Source: an uncultured Bacteroidales bacterium (GTDB lineage Bacteria; Bacteroidota; Bacteroidia; Bacteroidales; JAADJA01). From it: a stretch of 64,000 nt of DNA. Each line of letters starts with the position of its first letter. Within the stretch, counting starts at the first letter, position 1. The position numbers and the translations under genes are program-made. The stretch covers positions 145,894-209,893 of the forward strand of contig CAVPJF010000033.1 of the NCBI GenBank assembly GCA_963705185.1, written 5' to 3'. Shown here one piece after another: positions 1 through 47,660 of the stretch. Under the pieces are notes generated by a model. The model made no database searches, was not told where the DNA came from, and saw only the letters and a list, made by a program, of their open reading frames with translations.

Positions 1-310
1 CCCATAGCGAATTGCTTACACTTTCAATCGATGGGTAATATCGATTTGAAATAAAACCTAAATTTACACCAGTGTTAAACTTACTGCCCAACTCATCAGG
101 ATTGGCGGTAATTAAGTTAATTTCAGTGCTGGGATTAAACTTGCAATAGGCGCTTGTCCATTGCTTTGTGAGATCATACAAATCGGGAGAACACAAAATA
201 GTTATTGTATTATCCTTGACTTTATTGTCTTTTTTCAATACTTCTTTACTAATTGCAAAACTTGAATAAAGGAGTAAAAAACTTACGAAAAGAAGAAATG
301 TCTTTTTCAT
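1..310 (-). CDS. Secreted protein, N-terminal part only (continues past window start); weak resemblance to periplasmic substrate-binding (PstS/PBP-like) proteins
   Basis: ATG at 310..308. Own translation MKKTFLLFVSFLLLYSSFAISKEVLKKDNK...ITILCSPDLYDLTKQWTSAYCKFNP... stays open to position 1. Hydrophobic signal peptide. Absent from the ORF track because no stop lies inside the window. Confidence 0.45.
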   Translation of the reverse strand, partial: MKKTFLLFVSFLLLYSSFAISKEVLKKDNKVKDNTITILCSPDLYDLTKQWTSAYCKFNPSTEINLITANPDELGSKFNTGVNLGFISNRYYPSIESVSNSLW

Positions 311-1046
311 AATATTTAGTTTTAAAATAGTTGTAAAAAAATTCATATATGATTAACTTATATTTTTAAAGGTATTTCAACTTTGATACCAAAGCTATAA
401 ATCAGTTATAACTATATTATATTCAATATTATAACAAAAGAGATGTTTAAAATTCATTCACACTATAGTGTTTAAATATTAAACACTATTGGCATAAACA
501 TTATGTATAGATCAGTAAAACAAGTTTTTAATGATGCTGTAAACAAATTCAACAGCTGTTGAATTAATCACCAGGATTTAATTTTATTTGACGATTAGTT
601 TCCTTTGAAAGAAAAAAAGTTAAAATAGAAATGCATAACCTTTCCGTAAAGACCTTTTGGTTATAATAGCATTGAGCTCCATATGTCCAATTTTTTTAGG
701 AATAAATCGGGTCTATTGAATAGAAGGACAAATTGAAGACTTAAATTATTTAATTGACTTTAAAACAAATAAATTAATCCCAATTTTAGGAGAATGCTAA
801 TTTGGAGATTTAGGAGTAATCAATAAGCTTCGTATCCTTGGAAATTCATAACAGGTTGTACCCCGCATATACCTTTTTGTTTTAGGCACATCTGGAAAAT
901 TGAGGGTCTTTAAGTTTAATAAAAGATAAATGCCAAATACCAGAATATTACAATTGAGTCAGGGTATCCCAAACTTTGACATTGACAAAGGGAAGCGTCA
1001 TTAAATATAGCGGATGAAAATTTGTTGCCTTTAAAGTAATTCCTGC

Positions 1047-2327
1047 TTAATAAAGCATGATTTTCTTATTCGCTTTCAGGTTGTTGCTTCCAATTTTTAT
1101 GTAGTAGATTCCTTTAGGCTGATTTGACAGATCAAGATTTATGGTGTGATTTTCTGTCAGGTTTGAAGTGGTTGATTCATGAATAATCTTCCCTAAAGTA
1201 TTAAAAACAGTTACTGAAATAGTTCCAGGGGCTTGTTCAGTCATTCTTATGCTTATTAATCCAGCTGAAGGATTAGGAAATATTGTAACTGCTTCATTAT
1301 TGTTAATCAATTGATTGTTGATTCCAACCATGGGTAGCGAAACTTCATGAGTTATAAGATCATTGCAATCCATATAGTTGGCAGTAAGCGAAACTATATA
1401 GGTGCCAGCGCTGGCATAGGTGTGGGATGGATTATTTTCAGTACTTGTATTTCCATCACCAAAATCCCATAAATATGAAGTTGCATTTCCAGAATTGTTC
1501 AGAAATTCAACTGTATAATCAATTCCGGAAAAGCTGAATTCGGCGGTTGGTGCAGCATTAACAGTGATCATATTTTGTTTTGTTTCAGTAAGGGAACCAT
1601 TAATCGTTAGACTTACTGTTTTTGGTCCTGGTGTGTTATATGTTACGGTATGAGGACCCACTGTATTGGCTGTAGCAGGTGATGCACCTGCACCAAAATT
1701 CCAGTTCCATGGTTGCGCCAACTGATTGATCAGTGAATGTGACAATTTCACCCTGGCAAATTTCAGTAATATCGGATGAAAAATCTGCAACTAAAGGAAC
1801 AAAATCGAGTTGTATGTCTTTAAAGTAGGTTTGATCAGCAGGGGATATGGATTGGGCTATCTGGACCTTTAGTAAAGGTAAGTGAGTACAAAGGACCCTG
1901 AGCATGTTTTTCAGTAAATTCAACCCAAACGGTATAATCTCCATCCGGTACAATATTACCATCAAGATCAGTGCAATTCCATGTAACAGTATGGGTTTGA
2001 TGGCTAGTGAGTGGTTGAGCCGGTAATGGCATCAACTACATTATAATTGGACGCAGCTTTCCAGGTATACAGATATTGTTTACGCTGGTTTGCCATTGAT
2101 TTGCGGGTTTTAACGAAACCATCAGCATCTTCGACCCAGATGGCGAGAACATGTTTTGGGTGCATAGGTTCCGTTTTGTGTTACTGTTCTTACGGTAAAT
2201 GTTAGTACTCCTCCGGAATTGTGGTTTTTGGGTTTTTCTATGCCAGGTAAGGTGAAGCTGGCAAATAGTAACACTATAAAAAGTGAGATATGCCAAAAGA
2301 CGATGAAATAGTTAAACTTTTTTTCAT
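1047..2327 (-). pseudogene. Frame-disrupted secreted protein: DUF2271-like N-terminus, two PKD domains, T9SS (Por) C-terminal sorting domain
   Basis: Fragments 1047..1790, 1636..1965 and 1835..2035 plus an N-terminal piece join into one protein. PKD signatures WNWNFGAGASP...GPHTVTY and YLWDFGDGNTS...HTYASAGTY. C-terminus FPNPSAGLISI...GIYYIKI is typical of T9SS CTDs. At least 5 frame breaks; two map to homopolymers (T7 at 2318-2324, T4 at 2154-2157). Confidence 0.75.
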
Positions 2328-2392
2328 ATATATAAATTTATGAATTATAATGCAAAATTAAAATAATTCTCTTGAATTTATAAAAATATTAT

Positions 2393-2400
2393 TAATTTTG
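2393..2400 (+). promoter_or_regulatory. Candidate Bacteroidota -7 promoter box (TAnnTTTG) for tRNA-His
   Basis: TAATTTTG lies 14 nt upstream of the tRNA 5' end. A TTG at 2372-2374 sits at roughly -33 spacing. Confidence 0.4.
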
Positions 2401-2413
2401 ACCGCTTGTAAAT

Positions 2414-2488
2414 GGTGGTTGTAGCTCAGCTGGTTAGAGCGTCAGATTGTGGATCTGAAGGCCGTGGGTTCGAGCCCCATCTTCCACC
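2414..2488 (+). tRNA. tRNA-His (anticodon GTG)
   Basis: Hand-folded cloverleaf. Extra G(-1) opposite discriminator C. D stem GCTC/GAGC. Anticodon arm TCAGA-TTGTGGA-TCTGA. T arm GTGGG-TTCGAGC-CCCAT. CCA is not encoded. The acceptor stem has two adjacent U-U mismatches. Confidence 0.9.
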
Positions 2489-2497
2489 CCGGAAAAG

Positions 2498-2536
2498 AAA
2501 AGGAAGTTGATTTAAATTCGGCTTCCTTTTTTTATT
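2498..2536 (+). terminator. Rho-independent terminator after tRNA-His
   Basis: GGAAGTTGA / TTCGGCTTC stem (9 bp including G-U pairs), loop TTTAAAT, followed by a T7 run. Confidence 0.8.
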
Positions 2537-2580
2537 TAGGTAGCTTGACATTTATTTCTGATGAATGATTTAAGCTTTCT

Positions 2581-2709
2581 TTATTTGCCTTGTCTATTAT
2601 CATCTGTGGGTTTTTGCTTTCTCATTTTCCAAAATACCCAGCCGAATCCGATGATAATATGGAGAAGGACAATGGTGGCTGCGATGTAAAGAATGGTTTT
2701 CTCAGACAT
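2581..2709 (-). CDS. Possible 42-aa single-pass membrane peptide
   Basis: ATG..TAA ORF MSEKTILYIAATIVLLHIIIGFGWVFWKMRKQKPTDDNRQGK lies directly downstream of the ThrC-like gene. No other support. Confidence 0.25.
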   Translation of the reverse strand: MSEKTILYIAATIVLLHIIIGFGWVFWKMRKQKPTDDNRQGK

Positions 2710-2717
2710 AATTAAAA

Positions 2718-3953
2718 CTAAAGTTTAAGAAGGGTTTGAATTTCAGCTATTTCTGGTTCAATGGGATCGGGCAAATTTAAAAGAGGTTGAACGGCATTGA
2801 ATATCCTTTAGCCCGCTGCCGGTGAGAAGAACAACATTTCTTGTACCGGTATTAAGCTTGTCCTCTTCATAATATTTCAGCATTCCGGCAAAAGCAGCAG
2901 CCGATGCGGGTTCGGTAAAAATGCCAGTATTGACAGCAAGTTGACGCGAGGCATTGAGAATCTCCTGATCCGTGACAGAAATCGCTTCTCCATGTGTAAT
3001 CGTTGATGTAGCCACGAGCCATATAAAAATTCCGTGGATAATCAACAGCAATTGAATCGGCAATGGTATGGCTTTTCCTGACTTTGAATTCTTCATTCTG
3101 CAAGATTGCTGATCAGATTAGAACTTCCTTCGGCCTGCACTGCAACGATAATGGGAATTTTTTCAATGAGATTTAAAATGAAAAGGTCTTCGAAGCCGCT
3201 GTAAACCCCTGAAATAATTACCCCATCGCCGACAGGAACAAATATCCTGTCGGGGAGATGGTCCGTTCATTTGCTGAAATAGTTCAAAAGCAACCGTTTT
3301 TTTACCTTCAATGGTCAGGGGATTAAAGGCGGTATTGCGATTGTACCAGCCAAATTCTCTTGTGCCTGAATACTCAGTTCAAAAGCATCATCATAGGTTC
3401 CCTGTACAGGAATAATGGTTGCTCCATACATTAAAATCTGGGTGAGCTTGGCAACCGGCGCACCGGAAGGAACAACAATGATGGCTTTTTGTCCCTGGGC
3501 TGCACATATACCTGCGAGGGATGAGCCAGCATTGCCTGTGGAAGCAGTGATGATGGTATTCGAGCCATGTTCTTTGGCGAAAGCAGAGACCAAAGCAGAA
3601 GCACGATCCTTGAAAGAAAATGTCGGATTGAGGGCGTCATCCTTTAACAATAATTCAAATGGCAGGGGTTTGCCAGCAAATCTTTTGAATGCGTAAAGAG
3701 GCGTATTTCCTACACGCAGAGGTGGAAGTGAATTTCAAAGACCGGATAGGGAGCAGGTCGATAAAACCGGATGAGATTAAGTATCGGAAAATGTCTGACT
3801 CATCGGTTATATCTGGTAATCGTAAATGACCCGGAGGACTCCCTGTGGAGGGAGCGAATTGTCATTGCTACAACCGGGACAGAGGTACATGATCTCCGTT
3901 CCGGGATATTCCTTGTCGCAGTTGGGGCAATAATAAACGAATGATTTACTCAT
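2718..3953 (-). pseudogene. Threonine-synthase-like fold-type-II PLP enzyme with N-terminal Cys4 zinc ribbon; frame-disrupted
   Basis: N-terminus MSKSFVYYCPNCDKEYPGTEIMYLCPGCSN. PLP-lysine region NPTFSFKDRASALVSAFAKEHG...ASTGNAGSSLA. C-terminus LLTGSGLKDI..AVQPLLNLPDPIEPE in a shifted frame. At least 5 frame breaks. Its ATG overlaps the upstream stop by 8 nt (ATGAGTAA). Confidence 0.7.
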
Positions 3954-5421
3954 ATTCTTTCAATAACCCGGTTTTTTCATTGAATTCAGTGATCTTTTCA
4001 TCCCATTTATCAATATCTGAATATTGTGATTTCCAGTAATCATTGTTAAACCATTGATCATTCAGTTCTTCAACGGTTTTACCCTGTTGTTCGATCCAGG
4101 TAAAATATTTGAGGTTGTGAATTCTCTTTTTATCATAATGATTCAGTTCAATCATGTAATCAGTTGAAAGTTTCATGAGATCAGCCTCCGAATGAAATGG
4201 CTGCATTTAAGAGAATCAAAAACACCCTGTTTTTCATTTTCTTCTTGTAACCTTGAACGGTACATATCCATTGAATCAGTGGCAACGGTAAAAACCATAT
4301 CATTTTCATTCATTTCGTAATATTTTGCCATTTTTATTGCTCCCATCATATTGGCTATGGAGGAAATCCCGAGAAGTCCCAGCTGATCGATGCCAATGCG
4401 GATCAATACCAATTTCGTTAATCAGATAATTCCTTTCCTGCGTTTTCGTTGAACAGGCGCATGATACGGATATTGGCTTCGTCATCAATTCCGGCGACCA
4501 TATCCATATTTTTTATATTGTGAACCCAGGGAATATGTTTATCGCCAATTCCTTCGATCCGATGGCCGCCATAACCGTTATAAAGCAGGGTAGGACATTG
4601 CAAAGCTTCACCCGCACAAACTTTCAGGAACGGAAATTTTTCCCTGAGATAATCAGTGCTTCCGAGTGTTCCGGCTGATCCCTGTGTTAAGAAAAACTGC
4701 GCTGAACCGGCTTTTGTTAGATTTAATCTGTGAGAAAACTTCTTCCATAGCGGGTCCGGTAATCGCATAGTGCCAGCGTGGATTGCCAAATTCCTCGAAC
4801 TGGTTAAGGTTTACAATTTCATCGCCTCTTTCGGCTTTAAGTTCTTTTACTTTATCATAAATTTCCTTGACATTGCTTTCGCAACCATGTGTAGCAAAAA
4901 CTTCAGCGCCAACCCTGTGAAGCCATTCGAAACGTTCTTTCGACATTTCCTCAGGAAGAACAGCAATGGAATTGCATCCAAGCAGGTAAGAATCGTATGC
5001 ACCACCGCGGCAATAATTACCGGTTGATGGCCATAATGCTTTTTGCCAGGTGGGATCGAACTGGCCGGTAACCAGTTTCTCGACCAGCGGCCCAAATGTA
5101 GCACCTACTTTATGAGCGCCTGTTGGGAAGTATTTACCGATTAGAATAATGATCCTAGCCTTCACTCCGGATAATTCAGAAGGAATTTCAAGGTAATTGA
5201 CTTTTCCAAAACCTCCCCCAAAATCAACCGGTTCGTTTTTCCAGTGTAATCCTGAAAAGGTTCAGTGAGTTCAAATCCCACAGCCCGATATCCTTTAATT
5301 TATCCTTAATTTTCTGAGGGATCAATTCAGGATTGCGCATTTGTTTATAGGTAGGTATTATGATGTGCTGTTCGCGGCAGCGCTCAATGGTATTCGCTAA
5401 AACTTCTTCTTTGCTTTTCAT
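3946..5421 (-). pseudogene. Fold-type-II PLP-dependent enzyme (TrpB/cysteine-synthase superfamily), about 490 aa; frame-disrupted
   Basis: Six ORF fragments (5224..5421, 4653..5165, 4418..4789, 4306..4488, 4173..4412, 3946..4206) read through as one protein. FPTGAHKVGATFGPLV is the candidate PLP-lysine segment, followed by STGNYCRGGAYDS and GSAGTLG. Exact family not recognised. Confidence 0.65.
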
Positions 5422-5553
5422 ACATTATATAATTTGAACATTCCAAAATTCTTTTGCTCCGGTCAAAATTAAAGACATTTCAGCCGCTTTCAAATATGAT
5501 TGTTTTCATCGTCCATTTAGCTCAGAAATGAATGATTTTAAATGTCGCATTTT

Positions 5554-8500
5554 CTAAAATGACAGATGAATTACCAATTCCGAATAATGGTATTTATCAT
5601 CAGCCTGATTTGAAAATGAGTGGCTCGCGTTTTTATACTTAAAAAAAAATTTGCTTCTCAGTGATTCATAGTAATAACCCTGTTTCACTGAATCAAATGA
5701 TTTCCTGTTAGATAATAAATGAGGTTTATTCTTGTAAGGTGCTTCCGAAGTAGGGCAAAAGGTTGAGCAATTCCCGCATTCATTGCACCAGTCGGCAATA
5801 TGGAGAATCTGGTATTTTTGTGTAACCTCGAAAGTTTTCTCGTCTATCAATGGTGATACCGTTTTTTAAAATGAATTTTTTGAAGGTCGAATTTGAACGG
5901 GTTCGATTTGAAATGAAAACATGCAAGGTTAGGACAAACGGTTACACAAAAATTGCAAAGCTCATCGCAAATCAAGACAACGGGAAGCTTCTTTTTGAGC
6001 AGTTCAGCGGGCAGGGTATTCGTAACAAGGTTGAAGTTTTTTCGGTCAGTTAATGAGGTTTCCGGAATCTTAACAGATTTTTCACGTACCGTTTTTTTGA
6101 CCATAAGTTTATTGAAACTCTTCCTGTACCCGTTTTATTTGGTAAAGTCTCAAGTGGATAACCGGCTCTTTTCATGATCAATTCTGCTGTTTTTCTTCCA
6201 TCGGCTATTGCATTGATGATGGTCGAACCCCCTCTTTTTGCATCTCCACCAATAAAAATATTTTGAATTTGAGTTTCATAATCTTTAGTTTCCTTCCCTT
6301 ATTTTTTTTCGATAAAATTAAATTCTGCATCCTGTCCGATAGCAGGAATGACCGTATCGAATTCAAGATCAAATTCTGAATCAGGAATTTCGACTGGCAT
6401 AGGTCTTACGGTTCCATGTTTTTTGTTCAAGATTGATTTTAACACAAGTCAATGATTTGACCTGGTTGTTTATGGTATTGACCTTGACAGGTAAGGTTAA
6501 ATCAATTATAGTGATACCTTCTTCCTCAACTGCTTTTATTTCATCCGGATCGGCTGGCATCAGGGCTTTTGAACGACGATAAAGAATGGTTACCTTTCCA
6601 TTTTTACCCGTTAGCCGAAAAGCTGATCTTGCAGCATCCATAGCCGTATTTCCGCCACCGATCACAGCAATATTTTTTCCTATTTCTGGTCGGATGTCCC
6701 TTGTTTTAATTCAGCAAGGAATTTAAGAGGATCGAGAACTCCCTTGAATTAATTCCATCTATTGCAAATTTTCGTGATGACCAGGCACCCGTTGAGATAT
6801 AAATGAAATTGTATTCCTTCGGATTTCACTAAATCGCAGTTCGTTAATTTCCGAATTAAAGAAAATCTTAACTCCAGCCTTTACTATTCTTTCGAAATCC
6901 TTTTAAGTCCAGCCTCATTCAACCGGAATGCAGGAATTGCTTCGCTAACCATCCCTCCGGCAACATTTTTAGCTTCAAAAACGTCCACTTTAAATCCTGC
7001 AAGATTGAGGTAATGAGCACAGGATAAACCTGATGGTCCTGCTCCAATAATGGCAACTTTATTACCATTGTTAAGATGTTTTTGATGTTGAGAACTGTTC
7101 GTAAATATTTTCTGCAACAAACCGTTTAATTTCCCTTATCAGGAGTGGATCATCATAATTAATCCGGGTACATTTTGTCTGACAAACATGGTCACAAATC
7201 ATACCGGTTGTATTCGGGAAGGGATTGGTCCGAAATATTGCATTAAATGCATATGCAAAATCCCGGCTGACAGCAAAATGCAAATAATCCGGAATATCCT
7301 GATGGGTGGGACAAGTATCAACACAAGGGGCATGAATACAATCAAAGTAATTGAACTTCCTTTCGGTTTTAATATCCGGTTTATGTAGTTCAGTTAGCTG
7401 ATATTCTTTTTCATTCGAGAACCTCATTTGCGTAATTGTAAAGATTAAATTGAGAACCAGCAATGGTATTATTATCTCCGGACGTTTTCCTTATATAATC
7501 TTCAATCGAATATGACTTTTTGAATTCCATTTTTTCCGCAAGGTTAACCAGGTATTGATTTAGTAATCCATATCCGCCGGGTTTTAGCAAATCAGTACAA
7601 ACAGTTACCGGAACTAGTCCACAGGATATTACCTTAGGAGTATTGAAAGCATTTACACCGGCAGAAAATGAGATGTCGAGTAATCCGTTAAAGTCATTTT
7701 GCAGCTTAGCTGCAAGGTTTATTGCAATTGGATGCAAGGCCCTTCCACTCATGTAAATTGTTTTTTCCTCAGGCGGTAATACTTTTTTATGGTTAGTACT
7801 TTCCAAAGTATTGGTAAGCTTCAAACCGAAATAAACCTTGTTTTTATCAGCAGCTTTTTTGAGGGTTATGTATGATTTGCAGAGCGTCGGGATATTTCAG
7901 GTCATGTTCAAAGGCTTCATCCGGAATGATGGTTTCAAAACCACTTTTTTTCAAAATGCTGCATTAGCTTTTCTTTACCAAGAAGCGTGGGATTAAGTTT
8001 GATGATGGTGTGGAGTTTTTTTTCTTCAATCAGGTACAAACCGATTTTTTCGATTTCATCCGGAGGGCAACCATGCATGGTTGAGAGAGTCACATTATCG
8101 GAGATACAATCAGGAATATTTATTTTTCTATTCCCGGATAAATGTCCTGAATCTCATTTATTTTAGCCGCTTTTTGAATGCTACAGTCTTTCATCTGATC
8201 GAGAAACCATTGAACATTTTCCTTTAAAATACCCTTAAGGTCATAACCAATGCTCATATTGAAAATGGTTCCCAAGCTTTCTTCCATTGGATGACCTAAC
8301 TTATCCTTCAGAATATGCACCAATATCCATGCATTTAAGTATTGGTCAAAAGACTCATGAATCTTTAATTCCTGCGACCATTCACAATTATAACCTTCAT
8401 CCTGCATGTCGATACAGGGTTTTGTGACCTCCAATTCATCCATCGTTTGAATGGTTTTTAATTCGATGTATCTGGCGCCGCAAAGCCAGGCAGCAACAAT

Positions 8501-8710
8501 GTTTTGCGACATCTGAGTATGAGGTCCTGCTGCTGTGCCGATGGGAGTTTCGAGCAATTGATCAAAACGAATTAAACGAAAAGGGTCTGTTGGCTTAGGT
8601 TCAAAAAACAATTCTTTAGGAATACCAAAGAAGGAGTCTTTATTATTAAGTTGGTTGAGGGTTATTTCAACCAATTGCCTTAAAGGTAATATCTCAAAAC
8701 CATCCTTCAT
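5554..8710 (-). pseudogene. ygfK: YgfK-like oxidoreductase (DHOD/DPD-like domain, GltD-like FAD/NAD domain, 4Fe-4S domains); frame-disrupted
   Basis: The N-terminus GIPKELFFEP...TPIGTAAGPHTQMSQNIVAAWLCGARYIELKTIQ...KPCIDMQDEGYNCEWSQE tracks the E. coli YgfK N-terminus as I recall it. Dinucleotide fold VAIIGAGPSGLSCA. C-terminus WCNECGNCSTFCP. The 3157-nt span matches a ~1030-1050-aa protein. At least 8 frame breaks. Confidence 0.8.
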
Positions 8711-9661
8711 CAGACGGTTTTAAAACCTGTTTTAAGGTGCAAATTTTCCTTTGAAATCCCGACCAATTCATCACCCTCGATATTACCAAGCGGTTCAATG
8801 TGAATCAGAATGTCAAAAATGTTATCAATGTTTACCTTCAACCTGTTTTCAACCTGCTTGGCTATCAAATGGGCGTCACTCACCTTTGGTGTCTTTATCC
8901 ACTTCAATATCGAGTGCGATCAGGTAAAGTTCAGCAATTTTCCTTACCCTTATTCTATGGGGGTTAAATGCCCCTTCAACTTCTTCTACCGATTGGAAAA
9001 TTTTACTATAAATGTTAGTGTCCTTCAACCCGTCCATCATTTCCAGGTTAGATTCCTTGTAAATATCGAAAGCTACTTTTATAATCCAGATACTTACAAC
9101 CATACCGGTGATACTGTCAAATACCGGCATTTTTAGAATAAAAGTAAAAAGCAGTCCCAGGAGAACCGATGAGGATATTAAAACATCATTCCGCATGTTA
9201 CGGGCATTAGCAATGATCATCTGACTATTGATGCGTTTCCCGATTTTGGACTGCCAGTAAGCTAAAATGGACTTCCCAACGATGCTCAGGCCGGTCACAT
9301 AAATGGCTATCATCATTGGCATTTCGCGCAATTCACCAGAAATGAGTTGCCTTATGGTAGACAGGAACAATTCAGCACCTGCAAAAAAGATGATGAAAGC
9401 CAGAATTTTAGTAGCAGATGTTTCGGCTTTTTTATATCCATAGGGGTATTTCGGATCGGGGGGTTTTGAAATGATGCGGGCTGTAATCAAGGTAATCACG
9501 TAGGTGAGAACATCAGTGGCTGTATCAATTCCATCGCCTATTACAGCAAAACTTCCGGAAATAAATCCCACCAAAATTTTTAAGACAGCCAGGAGTGCGT
9601 TCCCTGCAATTCCAATCCATGAAGCTCGCTGTAACTCGGTTGATCGATTGCGCATTAACAT
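8710..9661 (-). CDS. Cation diffusion facilitator (CDF) family metal efflux transporter; one frame break near 8883
   Basis: GIAGNALLAVLKILVGFISGSFAVIGDGIDTATDVL plus six predicted TM segments and a C-terminal cytoplasmic domain (RIRVRKIAELYLIALDIEVD / HLIAKQVEN...IHIEP). The stop overlaps the ygfK-like ATG by 1 nt. Confidence 0.8.
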
Positions 9662-9756
9662 TAAATTATGGATAAATCCCCTGAATTTTATTATTCTAAC
9701 CCTGACAAAAATAATAATAAAGATTGTATAGTTTTGTGTTATTTCTTACCAACAAA

Positions 9757-10350
9757 ATGAAGACATCCTGCGTAATTCTGGCAGCCGGAAATTCTGAAAG
9801 AATGGGACAGATGAAGCCATTTCTCAGATTTAATAGTAGTTTTACTTTTCTTGAAAAGATCTTACATGTTTATCAATCAACTGTTATAAATAAAATTATA
9901 GTAGTTGTAAATGATGACGTTTATCAACAACTACAACAAATCAAATATAGTAATCTGGAATCTTGCAAGTTTGTCATCAATAAAAATCCGGAAAAGGGAA
10001 GATTCCATTCCATAAAACTTGGAATAAAAGAAGCGATAAATGATTCGCTGGTATTTCTGCAGAATGTTGATAATCCATTTGTGGATAATAAAACCCTTGA
10101 ATTATTGAAGAATGAAATTTGTGATGCAGAATATGCAATTCCGGTTTTTGAAGGAAATTCAGGCCATCCAATACTGTTGTCAGCAAAAGTTGCGAATGCT
10201 ATTATTCAAAATAAAAAAAATAATCCGGACCTAAGGAATGTCTTAAAGTCTTTTCAAAGGTGTGAAGTCAAAGTAAATGATCCTGGAATTTTAGTAAATA
10301 TAAATACACCGGAAGAATATTCGCAACATTTCCTCACCAGAACGAATTAG
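9757..10350 (+). CDS. mocA: MobA/MocA-like molybdenum cofactor nucleotidyltransferase
   Basis: MKTSCVILAAGNSERMGQMKPFL fits the N-terminal NTP-transferase motif. About 197 aa from the ATG at 9757 (the track starts earlier, at a TTG). The 3' end overlaps the convergent xdhB stop. Confidence 0.7.
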   Translation: MKTSCVILAAGNSERMGQMKPFLRFNSSFTFLEKILHVYQSTVINKIIVVVNDDVYQQLQQIKYSNLESCKFVINKNPEKGRFHSIKLGIKEAINDSLVFLQNVDNPFVDNKTLELLKNEICDAEYAIPVFEGNSGHPILLSAKVANAIIQNKKNNPDLRNVLKSFQRCEVKVNDPGILVNINTPEEYSQHFLTRTN

Positions 10351-12647
10351 GTTTCCATTACTTTCTTAAGGTTCTCAATTGATGTTAAAATCATTTCATT
10401 TGTTGCCGGTAAAGAAAACTCAGGTTCAATTTTATGATCGCCAATTGCCGAAATGGCATCTTTGATTGCCATCCAAACCGACAATGCCAGCATGAATGGT
10501 GGTTCTCCCACTGCCTTACTTTGCTTGATAGTATTTGGATTAGGGGCATCTTTTAACAGCTCTACCCTGAAATCTCTGGGGATATCTTTTATGGTTGGTA
10601 TCTTATAGGTATCGGGTGAATGGTTCAGTAAATTACCTTCTTCATCGTATTTTAGATCTTCTGTTGTAACCCATCCCAGGCCCTGGATAAATCCGCCCTC
10701 TATCTGACCGATGTCAATTTTTTCATTCAATGATTTTCCAACGTCATGTAAAATATCCGTTCTTAAAACTTTTACATAACCTGTCAGCGTATCCAGTTCA
10801 ACTTCAGTAACCGCCATTCCAAAGGCAAAATAATGAAAGGGTTTGCCTTTTCCTTTTTGTTTGTCATAATATATCCCCGGAGTTTTGTAGAATCCAGTGG
10901 CACTTAAGCTGGTTTGATTCAGATAGGCAGCGTTGATCAAATCCTTAAAAGATATTTTGTGCTTAGGATAATTCCCATCAAATACAAAGTTATCTTCAAA
11001 AACTATTTTTTTCTTTTTTGAATGACTTTCTATAAATAGATTCAATGCTACTTTCACTAACCTTGATTTTAGCTTTCCAATGGCATCTTTCACTGCCATT
11101 CCATTCAGATCGCTTCCGGATGAGGCCGCTGTAGCTGAGGTGTTTGGAACTCTGGATGTGTTTGTAGCTGCAACCTTAATGAATTCCGGGCTGATTCCCA
11201 GTTCTGAAGAAACGATTTGTAAAATTTTTGTATGAAGTCCCTGACCCATCTCAGTTCCGCCATGATTTACCTGCACTGTTCCATCTTTATAAATATTAAC
11301 CAGCGCTCCGGCTTGGTTAAGAAAAGCAGTCGTGAACGAAATCCCGAATTTAACCGGTGTCATTCCAAGTCCTTTTTTATTGAATTGGTTGTATTGGTTA
11401 AATCGGTCGATTTGTTTCCTTCGATTGAAATAATCTGAAGACTTCACGAGCTGATTATACAACAAAAGCAATCGATTATTTTCGACCTTCTGTCCATAAT
11501 GGGTAATGCTGTTTTTCCCTGATCTGTAAAAATTCAATTTTCTTATCTCTATGGCATCTTTTCCAAGGAACCTTGCAATCCGGTCAATTATATTTTCAAT
11601 AACGGCCATTCCCTGCGGTCCACCAAAACCTCTCATAGCCGTATTCGAAGGTTTATTGGTTTTCCATGAATGACCAATTACCCTTAAGTTGGGAATAAAA
11701 TAGGCATTATCCACATGGAACATGGCTCTTTCCATTATAGCCATCGTAAGATCAGTTGAAGAGCCGGCATCCAAATTCAGGTCGATGTCGATGGACAATA
11801 TCTTGCCATTTTTATTAAAACCCGCTTTATAGTTTGAAAGGGTGTTATGCCTTTTGCCTGTGATGATCTGGTCTTCATCGCGGGTGAGGTGAATTTTAAC
11901 CGGTCTGCCAGTATCTTTTGCAAGCAATGCTGCCCATGCAGCATAATGATTGGCCTGTGTCTCCTTTCCTCCAAAGGCACCACCCATCCTCCTCACTTCA
12001 ACTTCCACCTCATTTTTTTGGATTCCCAGGACTTCAGCAACAATGGCCTGGGTTTCGGAGGGATGTTGAGTTGAACTGTATAGTTTTATTTCTTTTCCCT
12101 CACCCGGCACTGCAAGGCAGGATTGGGTCTCAAGGTACCAATGCTCCTGACTTCCCGTTCTTAGCGTACCTTCAATAATATGATCACAAACTTTGAAGGC
12201 TGCAGAAATGCTTCCACATTCAATTTTTCGGGGTGGTTGTAAGCTGTTTTCTTTTAGAATTGCAGTTTCTAAATCAAGAATTGCTTCCAACGGCTCATAC
12301 TGAATTTCAATCAGCTTTTCAGCTTCACGGGCTATATCTTTATTTTCGGCAGCAATCAAAAGAATAACATGCCCGATAAAATGAACTTCATTTTCAGCAA
12401 GGCAGGGTTCATCATGGATAACAGGTCCCATTTGATTTGCACCCGGTATATCTTTATAAGAAAGGATTGCTTTAACCCCACTCAATGTCCGGGCTTTTTC
12501 ATAACTTATGGATTTGATTTTTGCATGTGCTTGTTTACTGCATACCAGGTGCCCGTATAGCATCTGTTCACCGACCTGAATATCATTCACATAAATCGAT
12601 TCACCCGTGACATGTTTATTAGCGCTATCGTGCGGAAGTAAGCTCAT
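10347..12647 (-). CDS. xdhB: Xanthine dehydrogenase, molybdopterin-binding large subunit (Rhodobacter-type XdhB)
   Basis: Intact 766-aa ORF. RRMGGAFGGKETQ, AMRGFGGPQG and KAVGEPPF match the active-site Glu/Arg/Glu contexts of xanthine oxidoreductases (recalled from the bovine enzyme). Confidence 0.9.
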   Translation of the reverse strand: MSLLPHDSANKHVTGESIYVNDIQVGEQMLYGHLVCSKQAHAKIKSISYEKARTLSGVKAILSYKDIPGANQMGPVIHDEPCLAENEVHFIGHVILLIAAENKDIAREAEKLIEIQYEPLEAILDLETAILKENSLQPPRKIECGSISAAFKVCDHIIEGTLRTGSQEHWYLETQSCLAVPGEGKEIKLYSSTQHPSETQAIVAEVLGIQKNEVEVEVRRMGGAFGGKETQANHYAAWAALLAKDTGRPVKIHLTRDEDQIITGKRHNTLSNYKAGFNKNGKILSIDIDLNLDAGSSTDLTMAIMERAMFHVDNAYFIPNLRVIGHSWKTNKPSNTAMRGFGGPQGMAVIENIIDRIARFLGKDAIEIRKLNFYRSGKNSITHYGQKVENNRLLLLYNQLVKSSDYFNRRKQIDRFNQYNQFNKKGLGMTPVKFGISFTTAFLNQAGALVNIYKDGTVQVNHGGTEMGQGLHTKILQIVSSELGISPEFIKVAATNTSRVPNTSATAASSGSDLNGMAVKDAIGKLKSRLVKVALNLFIESHSKKKKIVFEDNFVFDGNYPKHKISFKDLINAAYLNQTSLSATGFYKTPGIYYDKQKGKGKPFHYFAFGMAVTEVELDTLTGYVKVLRTDILHDVGKSLNEKIDIGQIEGGFIQGLGWVTTEDLKYDEEGNLLNHSPDTYKIPTIKDIPRDFRVELLKDAPNPNTIKQSKAVGEPPFMLALSVWMAIKDAISAIGDHKIEPEFSLPATNEMILTSIENLKKVMET

Positions 12648-14097
12648 ATATGGTTTCTTCGAAGAATTTGATCAATAAATTTTTTGCCGCTGTTTTCCTG
12701 AATTCAGCTCCTGACCGTGCATCTGAAATCGGGGTAAATTCATTTTCAAGTATTTTTTGAGCATGTTGAATATTTTCGAATGTCCATTTTTTATCCATCA
12801 AATAATCCTCAGTTGATTTGGCTCTTTTCGCCAGTTCCGCCATTCCGCCAAAGGCAAGACAGATATCTTTGACTTTGCCATTTTTTAATTCAATCCTAAA
12901 TCCTGCGCTTACAGTAGAAATATCCAAATCTTTTCGCTTGGAGATTTTATAAAACCTGATCAATTGTTCTTTAGGTTTTGGTATGATCAGAGAATGAATG
13001 ATTTCGCCTTTTTTTAAATCAGTTTTTCGATATCCTTTAATAAAGCTTTCAATAGAAAGAGTTCTTTGACCCCTTTTATTTATTAACCTGATTTTGGCAT
13101 TGTAAGCCATTAAAAGCGGAATGGTATCTCCTATGGGTGAAGCTGTCGCAATGTTGCCTCCTAAGGTAGCCAGGTTCCTGATTTGCTTTGATGCAAAAAT
13201 GTTAAGCATTTCGGTAAAAGCAGGTAATGACCCGATTAATTTTAGTCGGATGATCTCGAGAGGTAATCCAGATCCAATGATAAATTCATTTTTATTTTCA
13301 TGAAAGACTTTTAGTTCTTCAATAGCTGAAAGGTCGATTATTTCCTCAATTATTTCAAATCTTTTGGTTTGTTTCAACGCTATATCAGTTGAACCATTTA
13401 TGCAAAGTGCTTTCGGATATTTTTCGGATAAGTTTAAGCTTTCCAGCAGACTTTCAGGTTGAAAATATTTTTGATCAGTGGTGATGATTGAAATCGATCC
13501 TGAAGACGAGGCAATAGTTTTTAAAAGGGATATTGTCTCTTCCTTCTTTTTAGAAAACGGGTCGATTCTAATATTCTGACATGCAGCCTGAGTGGCTTTT
13601 AGGATAGGTTGATACCCTGTGCAACGGCAAAGATTACCTGTCAATGCATCCTCAATTATTTCCCTTGATGGGTTTTTGTAATTTTTATAAAGAGCAAACA
13701 TCGACATAACAATCCCTGGTGTACAATATCCGCATTGGCTTCCATTTAAGTCAACCAGAGCTTGCTGTACCGGATGAAGTTCGATTTCGTAACCATTTTT
13801 TAATGCCAGGTTTTCAACAGTGATCAGCTGTTTACCATGGATCATGGGTAGAAAAACCAGACAGGAATTGACTGCTTTGTAAACCAAAGAATCTTTACTA
13901 TCCAGTTCTGCCAAAACCACTGTGCAGGCTCCACAATCACCTTCGGCACAACCTTCCTTTACTCCTTTGTGGTTCGGAAGTGAGCGCAAATAATTCAATA
14001 CAGTTAATGTTGGACTAAGTTTCTGTTGAATAAAATCGACGTTTACGATCTTATCGTCTAAAACAAAGCTGATTTTATTTTGGTATTGACGCCTCAT
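12625..14097 (-). CDS. xdhA: Xanthine dehydrogenase small subunit (2x[2Fe-2S] plus FAD-binding domain; XdhA)
   Basis: Intact 490 aa. CAEGDCGACTV and CGYCTPG...CRCTGY iron-sulfur motifs are followed by a CO-dehydrogenase-flavoprotein-like domain. 23-nt overlap with xdhB. Confidence 0.9.
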   Translation of the reverse strand: MRRQYQNKISFVLDDKIVNVDFIQQKLSPTLTVLNYLRSLPNHKGVKEGCAEGDCGACTVVLAELDSKDSLVYKAVNSCLVFLPMIHGKQLITVENLALKNGYEIELHPVQQALVDLNGSQCGYCTPGIVMSMFALYKNYKNPSREIIEDALTGNLCRCTGYQPILKATQAACQNIRIDPFSKKKEETISLLKTIASSSGSISIITTDQKYFQPESLLESLNLSEKYPKALCINGSTDIALKQTKRFEIIEEIIDLSAIEELKVFHENKNEFIIGSGLPLEIIRLKLIGSLPAFTEMLNIFASKQIRNLATLGGNIATASPIGDTIPLLMAYNAKIRLINKRGQRTLSIESFIKGYRKTDLKKGEIIHSLIIPKPKEQLIRFYKISKRKDLDISTVSAGFRIELKNGKVKDICLAFGGMAELAKRAKSTEDYLMDKKWTFENIQHAQKILENEFTPISDARSGAEFRKTAAKNLLIKFFEETIYELTSAR

Positions 14098-14861
14098 TTA
14101 TTAATAGAATTCTTTACGTCGATCAGTTTTGCAAGTATACTGATGGCAATCTCCTCAGGAGTCTGTGCGTTGAATTTAATTCCAATGGGCATGTCAACTT
14201 TTTCTAATTCATGCTCGGTCAATATTTTTTGTTCCATTAATCTTTTTCGCGCTAATGCAACTTTCCTCGCACTACCAATCATACCAAGATAAGCAAAAGT
14301 TTTTTTTGCGCAGATTGCAAGCACTTCTTCGTCATATGCATGTTTGGGCGTAACTATAACTATGAAGTCATTTTCATTGAAGCCTATATCCTGAGCAGTT
14401 TTTATATAGTCATCTTGAATCAGCTGGACTCCGGGAATATCCATCGCATCCATTATTTCGTTCCGATGATCGACCAGGCAAATATGGAATCCAAAGTCAA
14501 AAGCATATTTCGCAAGTGCTTTACCAATATGACCAGCTCCAAAAATATACAGGTTCAGGTTTGGAACAATGGGTTCAATGTAAACCTCGGCCGTTCCTCC
14601 GCAATGCATTGATAAATCTTCTTCAAGATTGTAAATGAATTTTTCAGGGTGATTTTGGGCAATGACTTTCCGGGCATCATCGATCACCTTAAATTCAAGG
14701 CTGCCGCCACCAATAGTGCCTTCTATGGTTCCATTTTCGAAAACCAACATTTTTGATCCGGCTTTTCGCGGCGAACTACCCTTAGTTTCAACAATAATGC
14801 AGAATGCAGCTTTTTTGCCGGTATTTTTTATTTCAGCTATTTTGAATAATATATTTTCCAC
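14094..14861 (-). CDS. xdhC: XdhC/CoxI family molybdenum-hydroxylase maturation factor
   Basis: 255 aa. VETKGSSPRKAGSKMLV N-domain and LYIFGAGHIGKAL Rossmann-like domain. ATGA overlap with the xdhA start. Confidence 0.85.
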   Translation of the reverse strand: MENILFKIAEIKNTGKKAAFCIIVETKGSSPRKAGSKMLVFENGTIEGTIGGGSLEFKVIDDARKVIAQNHPEKFIYNLEEDLSMHCGGTAEVYIEPIVPNLNLYIFGAGHIGKALAKYAFDFGFHICLVDHRNEIMDAMDIPGVQLIQDDYIKTAQDIGFNENDFIVIVTPKHAYDEEVLAICAKKTFAYLGMIGSARKVALARKRLMEQKILTEHELEKVDMPIGIKFNAQTPEEIAISILAKLIDVKNSINK

Positions 14862-15384
14862 GTTCTTCTTTTAATCTATATCCTAATGGATTTCTGTTTT
14901 TATATGAAGGTTCGATTAACTCCTTGAGGATCTCATAAATTCTTATAATGTGCTGGTTTTGCTCAGTAGCATTCGCTTCTATTGCTTCAATTTTTTCAAG
15001 TAATTCATGGTAATTCGAAATTAACTTCCGCATTTTAACAAAAACACGCATAATTTGAATATTCACCTGAACTGCAACCGGACTTCTTAAGATTCCGGAT
15101 AACATGGCGACTCCCTGTTCAGTAAAAACCATTGGAAGATGCCTGCTTCCTCCCCAACTTGAGGTGCCAAATTGGTACCTCAAGTTATTGAATTCTTCCA
15201 ATGAGAGTTCAAACATAAAATCATCAGGGAATCGTTCAATATTTCTTCTGACAGCTCTTTTTAAAGTTTTAGTTTCTACACAGTATAAAGCTGCCAGGTC
15301 GGAATCGATCAATACTTTCTGATTTCGGATCACATAAATTTTCCCGGCAATAAATTCTTCTTTTGGTATAAGTTTATTCATCAA
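14833..15384 (-). CDS. ORF6N (KilA-N-related) domain DNA-binding protein
   Basis: 183 aa. IRNQKVLIDSDLAALYCVETKTLKRAVRRNIERFPDDFMFEL...SSWGGSRHLPMVFTEQGVAMLS is the ORF6N pattern as I recall it. The 3' end overlaps the xdhC start by 29 nt. Confidence 0.8.
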   Translation of the reverse strand: MMNKLIPKEEFIAGKIYVIRNQKVLIDSDLAALYCVETKTLKRAVRRNIERFPDDFMFELSLEEFNNLRYQFGTSSWGGSRHLPMVFTEQGVAMLSGILRSPVAVQVNIQIMRVFVKMRKLISNYHELLEKIEAIEANATEQNQHIIRIYEILKELIEPSYKNRNPLGYRLKEERGKYIIQNS

Positions 15385-15396
15385 TCTAACTTTTTA

Positions 15397-15415
15397 AGGT
15401 CACAAATTGTGACCT
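15397..15415. promoter_or_regulatory. Perfect 19-nt palindrome AGGTCACAA-A-TTGTGACCT, candidate operator or terminator
   Basis: 9-bp arms around one central base. It sits in the 37-nt gap between the GT4 stop (15422) and the ORF6N ATG (15384), 12 nt upstream of that ATG. Confidence 0.5.
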
Positions 15416-15421
15416 CAAGAT

Positions 15422-44573: not shown

Positions 44574-44600
44574 TAGTAACTGTATTTCAATAATTATTTC

Positions 44601-47600: not shown

Positions 47601-47660
47601 TCATAAATGGTAAAATGATCATCCTGTGATCATTGTTAATTGTAAAAAAATCTTTTTCAT
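44601..47660 (-). pseudogene. Large secreted protein(s) with lamin-tail-domain (LTD) modules and a dockerin-like Ca-binding C-terminus; heavily frame-disrupted
   Basis: Own reconstruction of the N-terminus: MKKIFLQLTMIT/..LPFMTTLAQNAWINEFHYDNTGTDVNEFVEIVIENAGTYTLSDF. Internal LTD: ...FVVPAHSFAALGNNADG...IGNTDDEIVLLLPDGVTEIDRI. C-terminus GDINADGNVNTADK...GADLNMNTQVSNKDKN. More than 10 frame breaks, so it could be one gene or two. Confidence 0.6.

Follow-up and report, generated by a model that had tools for sequence, protein, structure and literature searches.

Gene content and gene boundaries

The window (the whole stretch of DNA analysed, 64 kb, from an uncultured Bacteroidales bacterium) carries two gene groups on the minus strand, xdhC-xdhA-xdhB and a second one (operon 2) comprising the genes of a CDF transporter, YgfK, PLP-489 and the ThrC-like PLP-419; a mocA-like gene is placed between them on the plus strand. 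The features are as follows:

2415..2490, plus strand: tRNA-His(GTG), found by ARAGORN and Rfam; antisense to operon 2 and directly downstream of it
2718..3953, minus strand: PLP-419, fold-type-II PLP enzyme, ThrC-like, preceded at the N-terminus by a zinc ribbon of four Cys; 7 indels
3946..5421, minus strand: PLP-489, fold-type-II PLP enzyme of 489 aa, CysK/CBS-like and extended at both termini; 5 indels (near 5244, 4694, 4429, 4392 and 4189)
5425..8710, minus strand: YgfK (2,8-dioxopurine oxidoreductase family), ca. 1090 aa; 15–18 indels and 1–3 in-frame stops; fragments match TIGR03315
8710..9661, minus strand: CDF cation-efflux transporter; Pfam Cation_efflux and ZT_dimer; one +1 indel near 8887
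9757..10350, plus strand: mocA-like NTP transferase; Pfam NTP_transf_3
10347..12647, minus strand: xdhB, xanthine dehydrogenase molybdopterin subunit, 766 aa, intact; Pfam Ald_Xan_dh_C, MoCoBD_1/2
12625..14097, minus strand: xdhA, xanthine dehydrogenase small subunit (2Fe-2S + FAD), 490 aa, intact; Pfam Fer2_2, FAD_binding_5, CO_deh_flav_C
14094..14861, minus strand: xdhC-like accessory/maturation protein, 255 aa, intact; Pfam XdhC_CoxI and XdhC_C

Both dehydrogenase subunits score above their equivalog cut-offs, xdhA with 543.1 bits on TIGR02963 (cut-off 467) and xdhB with 1026.5 bits on TIGR02965 (849.5); xdhC reaches 151.7 bits on TIGR02964, slightly below the cut-off of 161.6. The initial annotation had described this operon as intact and coupled, and so it was found: the junctions overlap by 4 nt and 23 nt, and no frameshift was detected in the alignment of xdhC to its homologue in the related locus L001. 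In the two above-cut-off subunits and the coupled junctions the group resembles the Rhodobacter/Pseudomonas-type XdhAB + XdhC; it differs in that xdhC is placed first, not last, and scores slightly below the cut-off. A conserved ORF6N-domain gene overlaps the xdhC start.

The mocA reading frame (9724–10350) opens at TTG 9724, the probable start being ATG 9757. Its MobA-like NTP_transf_3 domain is clear; the product remains below the equivalog cut-off of TIGR03310 (MocA / YgfJ; 112.4 vs 186.45 bits). The genes mocA and xdhB are convergent and their stop codons overlap (TAG 10348–10350 and TAA 10347–10349, respectively), as reported initially. As in the E. coli cluster, for which the reference order mocA-ygfK-ssnA-ygfM-xdhD had been given correctly, mocA adjoins ygfK.

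The CDF fragment of the window gave 133 bits on PF01545, with Cation_efflux and ZT_dimer both above cut-offs; the intact L001 orthologue gave 215.8 bits on TIGR01297 (cut-off 82.35), the nearest named models being MamM, MamB and FieF. The stop codon of the CDF gene (8710–8712) and the ATG of ygfK (8708–8710) share 1 nt.

The frame-corrected YgfK scored 872.3 bits on TIGR03315, above the cut-off of 835.3, and the gene identities proposed in the initial annotation were borne out; the intact YgfK of the relative L085 scored 908.3 bits. Identity to E. coli YgfK is 40–58% over the aligned pieces. The window protein is a member of this family and the putative orthologue of E. coli NADPH:2,8-dioxopurine oxidoreductase, whose substrate it would be expected to share; NADPH-dependent 2,8-dioxopurine reduction is established for the E. 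coli enzyme only (bioRxiv 10.1101/2025.04.24.650524; 10.1101/2025.05.19.654654). The repaired ygfK ends with TAA 3 nt ahead of the PLP-489 ATG at 5421, and the stop of PLP-489 (3946–3948) and the ATG of PLP-419 (3951–3953) give an 8-nt gene overlap. The gene order of operon 2 and its 1-nt and 8-nt overlaps stand as first described, and the 132-nt gap between ygfK and the PLP gene does not: it is an artefact of an ORF at 5554–5850 that had been taken for the end of YgfK.

Reading frames of operon 2

All four genes of operon 2 are interrupted in the window sequence. Frameshifts were mapped by frameshift-aware alignment to intact homologues; ca. 31 repairs were needed, distributed as 1 in the CDF gene (ca. 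8887), 15–18 in ygfK, 5 in PLP-489 and 7 in PLP-419, and zero shifts were found across xdhCAB and the GT4 gene. YgfK has no uninterrupted reading frame in the window sequence, the counts of frameshifts (15–18) and of in-frame stops (1–3) varying with the reference. That the frames had to be repaired was recognised initially, the extent of the damage being understated.

Two origins of the indels were weighed, errors of assembly and true decay of a pseudogene cluster in a lineage that has lost the YgfK branch, the frameshifts then being real mutations. Decay would be consistent with the density of ca. 35 indels in 7.2 kb against 0 in the neighbouring 7.8 kb, with the absence of SsnA, HyuA and Se-dependent xanthine dehydrogenase (Se-XDH) neighbours in the clade of the window, with the weak association of the indels with homopolymers (31% vs 17% background, p = 0.03), and with two 1-nt insertions in PLP-489 that are common to the window and the sister contig L086 and that random error does not explain. 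The indel patch, however, disregards operon borders: it spans 1.7–8.9 kb and crosses the tRNA into an unrelated downstream PKD/T9SS gene, and a second patch was found ca. 40 kb off in nhaA, with two or three +1 shifts. Frameshifts also occur in sister contigs from this project, there at other positions and in other genes, xdhA and xdhB included. In the clade members L003, L041 and L042 the genes of YgfK, PLP-489 and PLP-419 are free of internal frameshifts; L041 has only single shifts, confined to the outermost parts of four genes, and L042 has a lone shift in xdhB. Near-invariant positions are mismatched at 2/196 in PLP-489 and at 1/80 in PLP-419, both within the control range, and dN/dS (window vs L086) is 0.04–0.18 for the broken genes as compared with 0.10–0.19 for the intact xdh genes. 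Because of the dN/dS and invariant-site tests the indels are judged most likely to be assembly errors, and decay is considered quite unlikely.

Properties of the two PLP enzymes

PLP-489 scored 51.5 bits on PALP (PF00291), above the gathering score of 35, and only 90.7 bits on the CysK model TIGR01139 (cut-off 350.95). The models of diaminopropionate (DAP) ammonia-lyases (TIGR03528, TIGR01747) were failed as well, the best value being 18.6 bits on NF006058 (cut-off 276); E. coli YgeX, taken as a control, scored 651. CysK and CBS are nonetheless its nearest relatives in both sequence and structure, at an identity of ca. 25%: K104 (the PLP-lysine), STGNY (the carboxylate-binding Asn loop) and GSAGTLG (the phosphate-binding Gly loop) line up with their CysK counterparts; around the lysine, PLP-489 reads TGAHKVG where CysK has SxKDR. 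An AF2 model (pLDDT 76.5, pTM 0.82) had CysK and CBS as best PDB neighbours; its superposition on CysK, CBS and beta-cyanoalanine synthase gave TM values, normalised to the target, of 0.75–0.79. In contrast to CysK, PLP-489 has additional helical regions of ca. 70 aa (N-terminal) and ca. 100 aa (C-terminal). The family is 72–90% identical across phyla.

PLP-419 scored 214.1 bits on PALP (gathering score 35) and passed the generic thrC model TIGR00260 (cut-off 167.1) with 182.5 bits for the corrected window protein and 187.3 bits for the L001 protein. It remained below the cut-offs of all subfamily ThrC models: PRK08197, 209–214 vs 303; PRK05638, 211–224 vs 421; PRK06450, 179–188 vs 301; PRK08329, 170–174 vs 358. 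The nearest PDB matches are ThrC (ca. 168 bits); matches to solved DAP ammonia-lyases are weak (31–33 bits). Its architecture, a Cys4 ribbon followed by a ThrC-like PALP domain, is that of the zinc-ribbon (archaeal-type) threonine synthases (PRK08197 / PRK05638) and of ThrC paralogues such as cysteate synthase; it differs from them in the sub-cut-off subfamily scores and in a purine-catabolism context instead of thrA/thrB, the neighbours being YgfK, YgeW and Xdh genes and not a thr operon.

Conservation of the gene neighbourhood

PLP-489 occurs in no fewer than 578 of the GTDB species representatives. YgfK lies upstream of it in 35 of the 49 loci having enough flank and PLP-419 downstream in 39/58, the triad YgfK-PLP-489-PLP-419 being present in 25/41. 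When only the pathway and cluster genes screened for are considered, the nearest gene upstream of PLP-489 in 80 loci is YgfK (35), YqeA (17) or YgeW (15), i.e., 67/80 (68 including one SsnA). The same 80 GTDB loci further contain YgeW (26), Se-XDH-type genes (25), SsnA (19), YqeA (19), YgeY (15) and HyuA (10), and in some loci YqeB and YqeC were also found. The arrangement YgfK-PLP-PLP is far beyond chance, since it recurs in dozens of species; environmental anaerobes commonly have it. The adjacency claimed in the initial annotation is conserved in relatives across phyla.

Two principal orders were observed: YgfK-P489-P419-SeXDH-SsnA-u206-HyuA in the Bacteroidota type, and HyuA-SsnA-YgfK-YgeY-YgeW-(YqeA)-P489-P419 in Cloacimonadota, Lentisphaeria and Neomarinimicrobiota (Marinimicrobia), where P489 occupies the slot after ygeW that is taken by ygeX in E. 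coli. The Bacteroidota-type loci L083–L085 carry the Se-XDH-type gene; that of L085, the sole one tested by HMM, gave 855 bits on TIGR03311 (cut-off 830). A score of 560 bits on TIGR02033 (cut-off 393) was obtained for the hydantoinase. The corresponding proteins are 58–66% (YgeW) and 52–69% (YgeY) identical to those of E. coli.

The reference system, described by Liu et al. (2025) and Li et al. (2025), is the cluster for the 2,8-dioxopurine (reductive uric acid) pathway in E. coli and Clostridium sporogenes, which comprises xdhD/ygfM or xdhAC together with ygfK, ssnA, hyuA, ygeW, yqeA, ygeY and ygeX. Common to both are a YgfK above the TIGR03315 cut-off in the window and, in the relatives, Se-dependent XDH, SsnA-like, HyuA-like, YgeW, YgeY and YqeA proteins. 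The difference lies in YgeX: no orthologue was found in 86 loci (the top match, 64 bits, is to P419; YgeW and YgeY, by comparison, score 400–600 bits), and two other fold-type-II PLP enzymes stand in its place. The initial view that the usual partners had been replaced is accordingly to be corrected, YgeX alone being absent from the relatives. The hosts also differ, being environmental Bacteroidota, Cloacimonadota and others, phyla unnamed in the published SsnA survey.

Proposed function of the PLP pair

The locus is considered, with moderate probability, to be a purine-catabolic island that is biologically intact, poorly assembled at ca. 1.7–8.9 kb, and provided with the PLP pair in place of YgeX. 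XdhAB with XdhC, assigned by family membership, would convert hypoxanthine and xanthine into urate, MocA may provide the cytosine-dinucleotide molybdenum cofactor to a partner hydroxylase, and YgfK would carry out the dearomatisation in the anaerobic, reductive pathway of urate breakdown. The PLP pair, encoded directly 3' of ygfK, would act at the amino-acid end of this pathway, where it would split 2,3-diaminopropionate, or perhaps albizziin, its 3-ureido precursor, by beta-elimination to give pyruvate plus ammonia or urea. It would thereby replace YgeX, absent from every related cluster, at the terminal diaminopropionate ammonia-lyase step; a known pathway would thus end in two uncharacterised PLP enzymes instead of the known final enzyme. 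This substitution, suggested in the initial annotation and favoured by the neighbourhood data, is deduced from three things: where the genes lie, what they co-occur with, and a CysK-like core of the beta-elimination/replacement type. A possible division of labour would be that of D- and L-specific lyases, of a racemase and a lyase, or of a urea-lyase and an ammonia-lyase.

YgeX / DpaL (TIGR03528) is likewise a fold-type-II PLP enzyme, located at the same place after ygeW, and beta-elimination from a beta-substituted alanine is the chemistry proposed here for the pair. PLP-489 and PLP-419, however, belong to subfamilies separate from YgeX, and the replacement is therefore non-orthologous at best. 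Further points count against it: two enzymes are present where one lyase would suffice for the YgeX step; PLP-419 scores above the cut-off of the generic thrC model and bears the NCBI name "threonine synthase"; and in the published enzymology the product of YgfK was undetectable without SsnA, a gene absent from the 64 kb.

The names in the databases and the generic thrC score of PLP-419 would agree with ordinary enzymes of amino-acid biosynthesis (cysteine-synthase-like and threonine synthase) that adjoin ygfK incidentally: PLP-419 is a threonine synthase in the JGI records as well, the JGI label of PLP-489 is "cysteine synthase", and PLP-489 is solitary in Spirochaetota loci. PLP-419 is nevertheless not simply a housekeeping enzyme, because it fails every subfamily ThrC model and co-travels with purine genes; PLP-489 has the low CysK score (91 vs 351) and the two extensions absent from CysK; and in at least 6 phyla, with gene orders that differ, the pair lies amid YgeW/YqeA/YgfK and Xdh genes, which is unexpected for a chance neighbour. 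Incidental adjacency is thus regarded as very unlikely. Membership of the housekeeping ThrC/CysK groups, named in the initial annotation as a ground for refutation, is clearly excluded for PLP-489 and less clearly for PLP-419.

A role of YgfK and the two PLP enzymes in selenium or cofactor handling for a Se-dependent molybdenum hydroxylase (e.g., in the synthesis or breakdown of a selenocysteine-like donor), not in catabolism, is suggested by the legacy YgfK annotation "putative selenate reductase", by the TIGR03311 Se-dependent XDH directly 3' of PLP-419 in relatives and by YqeB and YqeC in some loci. CysK-type enzymes are able to use selenide, which also speaks for such a role. On the other hand, the clade of the window retains the triad with no Se-XDH nearby, and outside Bacteroidota the commonest neighbours of PLP-489 are the catabolic YgeW and YqeA. 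Purified E. coli YgfK reduces 2,8-dioxopurine, selenate being neither required nor stimulatory (10.1101/2025.04.24.650524). Selenium handling is held to be highly improbable.

The PLP enzymes might also shorten the pathway, one of them acting as a urea-lyase on albizziin (3-ureidoalanine) and rendering YgeY dispensable, the other serving a second beta-substituted intermediate. CysK relatives take ureido-type groups, an O-ureidoserine synthase is among the PDB matches, and in the Bacteroidota-type clusters of L083–L085 SsnA and HyuA are present, YgeY, YgeW and YqeA being absent from the same gene run. Against this, YgeY occurs in 15 loci (with PLP-489 by construction and with PLP-419 in most), where YgeX only is bypassed, and YgeW or YgeY is close by in certain loci of Bacteroidota (L009, L036); a shortened pathway is considered unlikely. 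Replacement of YgeX is the reading retained. PLP-489 is also solitary in unrelated contexts in other MAGs besides those of Spirochaetota, and YgfK is missing from 9 of the 26 PLP-489 loci with full flanks; therefore, its role may be broader than purine catabolism.

Cluster variant of the window's clade

The clade of the window has a truncated version of the cluster, plus a clade-specific CDF transporter. SsnA, HyuA, Se-XDH/XdhD, YgeW, YqeA and YgeY gave no match within the 64-kb window; a urate-reducing Mo hydroxylase of the XdhD/DOPDH type was not found there either, the Se-XDH query reaching the classical XdhAB only (28% identity). In contrast to the reference cluster, the clade thus combines XdhAB + XdhC and the CDF gene with the lack of nearby Se-XDH, SsnA and HyuA, which are located 3' in other Bacteroidota and would be encoded elsewhere in the genome or be missing. 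The CDF gene, noted initially as a cluster partner, is indeed present in the window but confined to this clade (7 related loci and the window), and is probably a clade-specific insertion translationally coupled to ygfK. The tRNA-His at the end of the cluster keeps its position in L001, L003, L041 and L086, is missing in L083 and L085, and is the cluster boundary in the window's clade.

Gene layout of the island

The island represents, in truncated form, an undescribed and widespread variant of the recently solved reductive urate (2,8-dioxopurine) pathway. On balance it was read as a purine island in which two fold-type-II PLP enzymes, PLP-489 (CysK/CBS-like) and PLP-419 (ThrC-like), stand in place of YgeX, the 2,3-diaminopropionate ammonia-lyase. 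The following features were located (window positions):

14094–14861, minus strand: xdhC, intact; TIGR02964, 151.7 bits, just below the cut-off of 161.6
12625–14097, minus strand: xdhA, intact; 543 bits, cut-off 467; 4-nt overlap with xdhC
10347–12647, minus strand: xdhB, intact; 1026 bits, cut-off 849.5; 23-nt overlap with xdhA
9724–10350, plus strand: mocA (MobA/MocA-like) ORF, likely ATG at 9757; converges on xdhB
3946–5421, minus strand: PLP-489
2718–3953, minus strand: PLP-419
1047–2296: PKD/Por_Secre_tail protein (Pfam)

The products of xdhA and xdhB belong firmly to the Rhodobacter/Pseudomonas-type xanthine dehydrogenase families (Pfam, NCBIfam), and the PKD/Por_Secre_tail protein places the organism in Bacteroidota. 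The stop codon of mocA (TAG, 10348–10350) overlaps that of xdhB (TAA, 10347–10349). The order of operon 2 in the initial annotation (CDF transporter, YgfK, PLP-489, PLP-419; minus strand) was reproduced, and the 1-nt CDF/YgfK and 8-nt PLP-489/PLP-419 overlaps are real; the 132-nt gap reported between ygfK and the first PLP gene was an artefact, the repaired YgfK stopping 3 nt before the PLP-489 ATG and giving 872 bits on TIGR03315 (cut-off 835).

No other gene of the island has diverged nearly as far as mocA (43% identity to the protein at 8362–8946 of the related contig L001; neighbours 69–88%); its product fell short of the equivalog cut-off for MocA and matched best to the N-terminal half of the DVU_1551 NTP-transferase family. 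A gene at 14833–15384 (minus strand), encoding a protein with an ORF6N (KilA-N-like DNA-binding) domain, shares 29 nt with the start of xdhC; it is conserved upstream of xdhC in the related loci L002, L083 and L086, and may encode a regulator transcribed together with the xdh operon. Rfam at gathering thresholds returned two tRNAs as the only RNA features of the window; a sigma-70 promoter/terminator scan, uninformative for Bacteroidota, gave nothing above shuffled expectation.

Broken reading frames

None of the four operon 2 genes is open in the window sequence. Frameshifts were mapped by frameshift-aware protein-to-DNA alignment against intact homologues of related contigs.

Frameshifts per gene
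GT4, xdhC, xdhA, xdhB: 0
CDF: 1 (~8887)
YgfK: 15–18, with 1–3 in-frame stops, varying with the reference
PLP-489: 5
PLP-419: 7
PKD gene, beyond the antisense tRNA-His: 4

About 35 indels, mostly 1-nt insertions, were counted in 1710–8887 versus none in 8888–16681, and the patch disregards transcription-unit borders. A second broken patch at 44600–48300, hitting unrelated genes, supports patchy assembly error across the contig; it includes nhaA (47892–49235), with +1 shifts at 48251, 48109 and ~47925, and a large LTD-domain-like gene (44.6–47.6 kb) broken up into many short ORFs.

Decay of the operon was weighed at sites that are the same in at least 97% of family members (near-invariant sites) and by dN/dS between the window and L086, a contig of the same ENA project (window 1–15561 vs L086 3–15481; ~88% identity over the aligned stretch). 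Differences at near-invariant sites numbered 2/196 in repaired PLP-489 and 1/80 in repaired PLP-419, both within the range of intact controls; dN/dS: PLP-489 0.039, CDF 0.054, YgfK 0.157, PLP-419 0.133, PKD 0.18; intact xdh genes 0.10–0.19. The broken genes are thus under purifying selection throughout, and the pseudogene reading was rejected, both tests agreeing. Sister contigs of the same project (Flye-style names) carry other frameshifts, many of them in xdhA and xdhB (L002, L086); the YgfK and PLP genes are intact in three other clade members (L003, L041, L042), and L001 has intact PLP genes and a YgfK with two frameshifts. From the invariant sites, dN/dS, the patch borders and the sister contigs, the operon 2 frameshifts are very probably an assembly artefact. 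The island first described is real, and was read across ~31 probable assembly errors.

The origin of the errors was considered further. Homopolymer-driven nanopore error is an insufficient explanation, the enrichment near homopolymers being weak (9/35 indels at ±6 nt, same as background; 11/35, 31%, at ±12 nt vs 17% background, p = 0.03). Two single-base insertions in PLP-489 (~5244 and ~4429; e.g., ACA[C]TGG) are common to the window and L086 despite the strong purifying selection on this gene between them; the suspected cause is a systematic error in the consensus or polishing across strains. Identity to L086 was 98–99% in the flanks (1–1000, 14001–15561) and 79–93% per kb in 1001–14000; dS was 0.05 in xdhC and 0.3–1.9 from xdhA through the PKD gene. 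This pattern suggests that the purine island varies between strains or was exchanged by recombination, which could also account for the poor local consensus. As a practical caution, indel-error patches in this long-read MAG mimic an operon-specific pseudogene cluster.

Published pathway

Reconstitution of the pathway dates from 2025, in two studies limited to E. coli and Clostridia (10.1101/2025.04.24.650524; 10.1101/2025.05.19.654654); the steps are as follows: urate to 2,8-dioxopurine (XdhD/DOPDH); 2,8-dioxopurine to a reduced product (YgfK, NADPH-dependent, selenate not needed); this product to ureidomethyl-hydantoin (SsnA); ureidomethyl-hydantoin to 2,3-diureidopropionate (HyuA); 2,3-diureidopropionate to albizziin (YgeW/YqeA or UacY); albizziin to 2,3-diaminopropionate (YgeY); 2,3-diaminopropionate to pyruvate and NH3 (YgeX). 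In the published survey any PF00291 protein near SsnA was counted as YgeX, and the phyla covered were Pseudomonadota, Bacillota, Chloroflexota, Actinomycetota, Spirochaetota and Elusimicrobiota (10.1101/2025.04.24.650524; 10.1101/2025.05.19.654654).

Conservation of the YgfK/PLP-489/PLP-419 association

A protein search with PLP-489 gave at least 8000 candidates, the best 120 of which were all at least 79% identical, came from Bacteroidales, KSB1, Desulfosarcina, Cloacimonadota and Chlorobi, and carried no more specific name than 'pyridoxal-phosphate dependent enzyme' or 'cysteine synthase'; the family is very large and unusually conserved. Cross-phylum identity was 72–90% for PLP-489 and 41–66% for PLP-419. 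With each GTDB species represented by a single genome, a scan confirmed at least 578 PLP-489 loci. Neighbourhoods were tabulated for the best 80 of these with 10-kb flanks, a non-random sample of the most query-like loci: YgfK upstream of PLP-489, 35/49 loci with enough flank; PLP-419 downstream, 39/58; all three together, 25/41. The adjacency of YgfK to the two PLP enzymes, on which the initial annotation had staked its claim, is therefore kept in related genomes. In 68 of the 80 loci the closest upstream gene among those screened was YgfK, YqeA, YgeW or SsnA.

PLP-489 was also found as a stand-alone gene in Spirochaetota and in other or unclassified MAGs, amid unrelated neighbours (sugar kinase, aldolase, 2-hydroxyacid dehydrogenase, O-antigen ligase) that gave no functional lead; its role may therefore exceed purine catabolism.

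The same 80 loci were queried with the E. coli K-12 cluster proteins: YgeW, 26/80 (58–66% identity to E. coli); YgeY, 15/80 (52–69%); YqeA, 19/80 (43–51%). The typical order was HyuA-SsnA-YgfK-YgeY-YgeW-PLP489-PLP419-Xdh in Cloacimonadota and SsnA-YgeY-YgeW-PLP489-PLP419-XdhA-YgfK-GuaD-XdhD in Lentisphaeria/Neomarinimicrobiota. No YgeX orthologue was found among the PLP-489 loci examined, the best YgeX-query matches reaching 55–64 bits and sitting on PLP-419 wherever coordinates were checked. The E. coli cluster has the order ygeW-ygeX, whereas the PLP-489 loci have YgeW-(YqeA)-PLP489. Many environmental anaerobes thus keep the upstream genes, without YgeX and with two conserved, unstudied PLP enzymes; PLP-489 itself occurs in at least 578 species representatives.

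The two PLP enzymes

PLP-489: Assignment as CysK was rejected (91 bits, cut-off 351). The aligned sequence keeps the CysK Schiff-base lysine (TGAHKVG), the carboxylate-binding STGN loop and the GSAGTLG phosphate loop; the AlphaFold model (pLDDT 76.5, pTM 0.82) superposes on CysK, CBS and beta-cyanoalanine synthase with target-normalised TM 0.75–0.79. The structure search returned generic CysK/CBS neighbours only, the extra N- and C-terminal helical regions being unmatched. By analogy with these enzymes the core is one for beta-elimination/beta-replacement chemistry on beta-substituted alanines, a class that includes both diaminopropionate and albizziin.

PLP-419: The protein consists of a Cys4 zinc ribbon and a ThrC-like domain, is named 'threonine synthase' at NCBI, and passes the generic thrC model (182–187 bits, cut-off 167) and none of the subfamily models. 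Neither PLP-489 nor PLP-419 belongs to the diaminopropionate ammonia-lyase family, and no description of this form was found in the literature.

The pair would convert a C3 amino acid to pyruvate as the terminal step, in the place of YgeX. Because the hydantoinase of the pathway is D-specific and an alternative enzyme resembles D-aminoacylases, the intermediates may be D-configured; a racemase/lyase or a D/L enzyme pair is therefore one possibility, and albizziin urea-lyase is another possible role within the pair. The initial annotation, which had the PLP enzymes either standing in for a YgeX-type step or building or degrading an unusual amino acid, was partly right, the first proposal being the one retained here. 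As candidates for the last step in place of YgeX, both enzymes are well suited to testing, with a defined substrate set. More tentatively, the two might work together as a PLP module not described before, completing the anaerobic 2,8-dioxopurine pathway in Bacteroidota, Cloacimonadota, Lentisphaerota, Neomarinimicrobiota (Marinimicrobia) and related environmental anaerobes by chemistry unlike that of YgeX (e.g., an albizziin urea-lyase or, for D-configured intermediates, a racemase paired with a lyase); if so, the pathway known from gut Bacillota and E. coli would have a separate counterpart that is widespread in the environment. The misleading annotations 'cysteine synthase', 'threonine synthase' and 'selenate reductase' are corrected.

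Truncated cluster of the window's clade

The CDF gene was found only in the window's clade (window, L001–L004, L041, L042, L086), where it invariably separates mocA from ygfK and is coupled to the latter. Se-dependent xanthine dehydrogenase (Se-XDH), SsnA, HyuA and a 206–207-aa protein (u206) are absent from the cluster across this clade. An antisense tRNA-His(GTG) directly follows PLP-419, and the PKD/T9SS gene comes next, in 5/5 CDF-bearing members scanned for tRNAs:

window, 2415–2490
L001, 16251–16325
L003, 12853–12927
L041, 12927–13001
L086, 12989–13063

The tRNA is likely a rearrangement breakpoint, since other Bacteroidota continue at this point with Se-XDH, SsnA, u206 and HyuA. A search of the 64-kb window gave no SsnA, HyuA, Se-XDH, u206, YgeW, YgeX, YgeY, YqeA, YqeC, GuaD or purine permeases. 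The genes missing from the clade's cluster are expected elsewhere in the genome, because the YgfK product was undetectable without SsnA in the published work (10.1101/2025.04.24.650524; 10.1101/2025.05.19.654654).

In the related loci L083–L085 mocA lies on the opposite strand, with xdhC beside it in L085 and full xdhCAB upstream in L083; the forward strand carries YgfK, PLP-489, PLP-419, an 848–850-aa Mo hydroxylase, an amidohydrolase, a 206-aa protein and a second amidohydrolase (Pfam). NCBIfam assignments: Mo hydroxylase, Se-dependent XDH (TIGR03311, 855; cut-off 830); first amidohydrolase, SsnA-like (378; cut-off 444); second amidohydrolase, D-hydantoinase/dihydropyrimidinase (560; cut-off 393).

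The conserved u206, which gave no Pfam or NCBIfam match, lies between the SsnA-like and HyuA-like genes of Bacteroidota-type clusters (L085 17095–17715; L083 18485–19108; L084 11078–11698; also L009) and could account for a missing decarbamoylation step. In one relative the cluster is followed by an FdhF/YdeP-family molybdopterin oxidoreductase (L085 19272–21446; TIGR01701, 696; cut-off 582), which may be an electron-donor module, recalling the formate-dependent urate utilisation proteins of E. coli.
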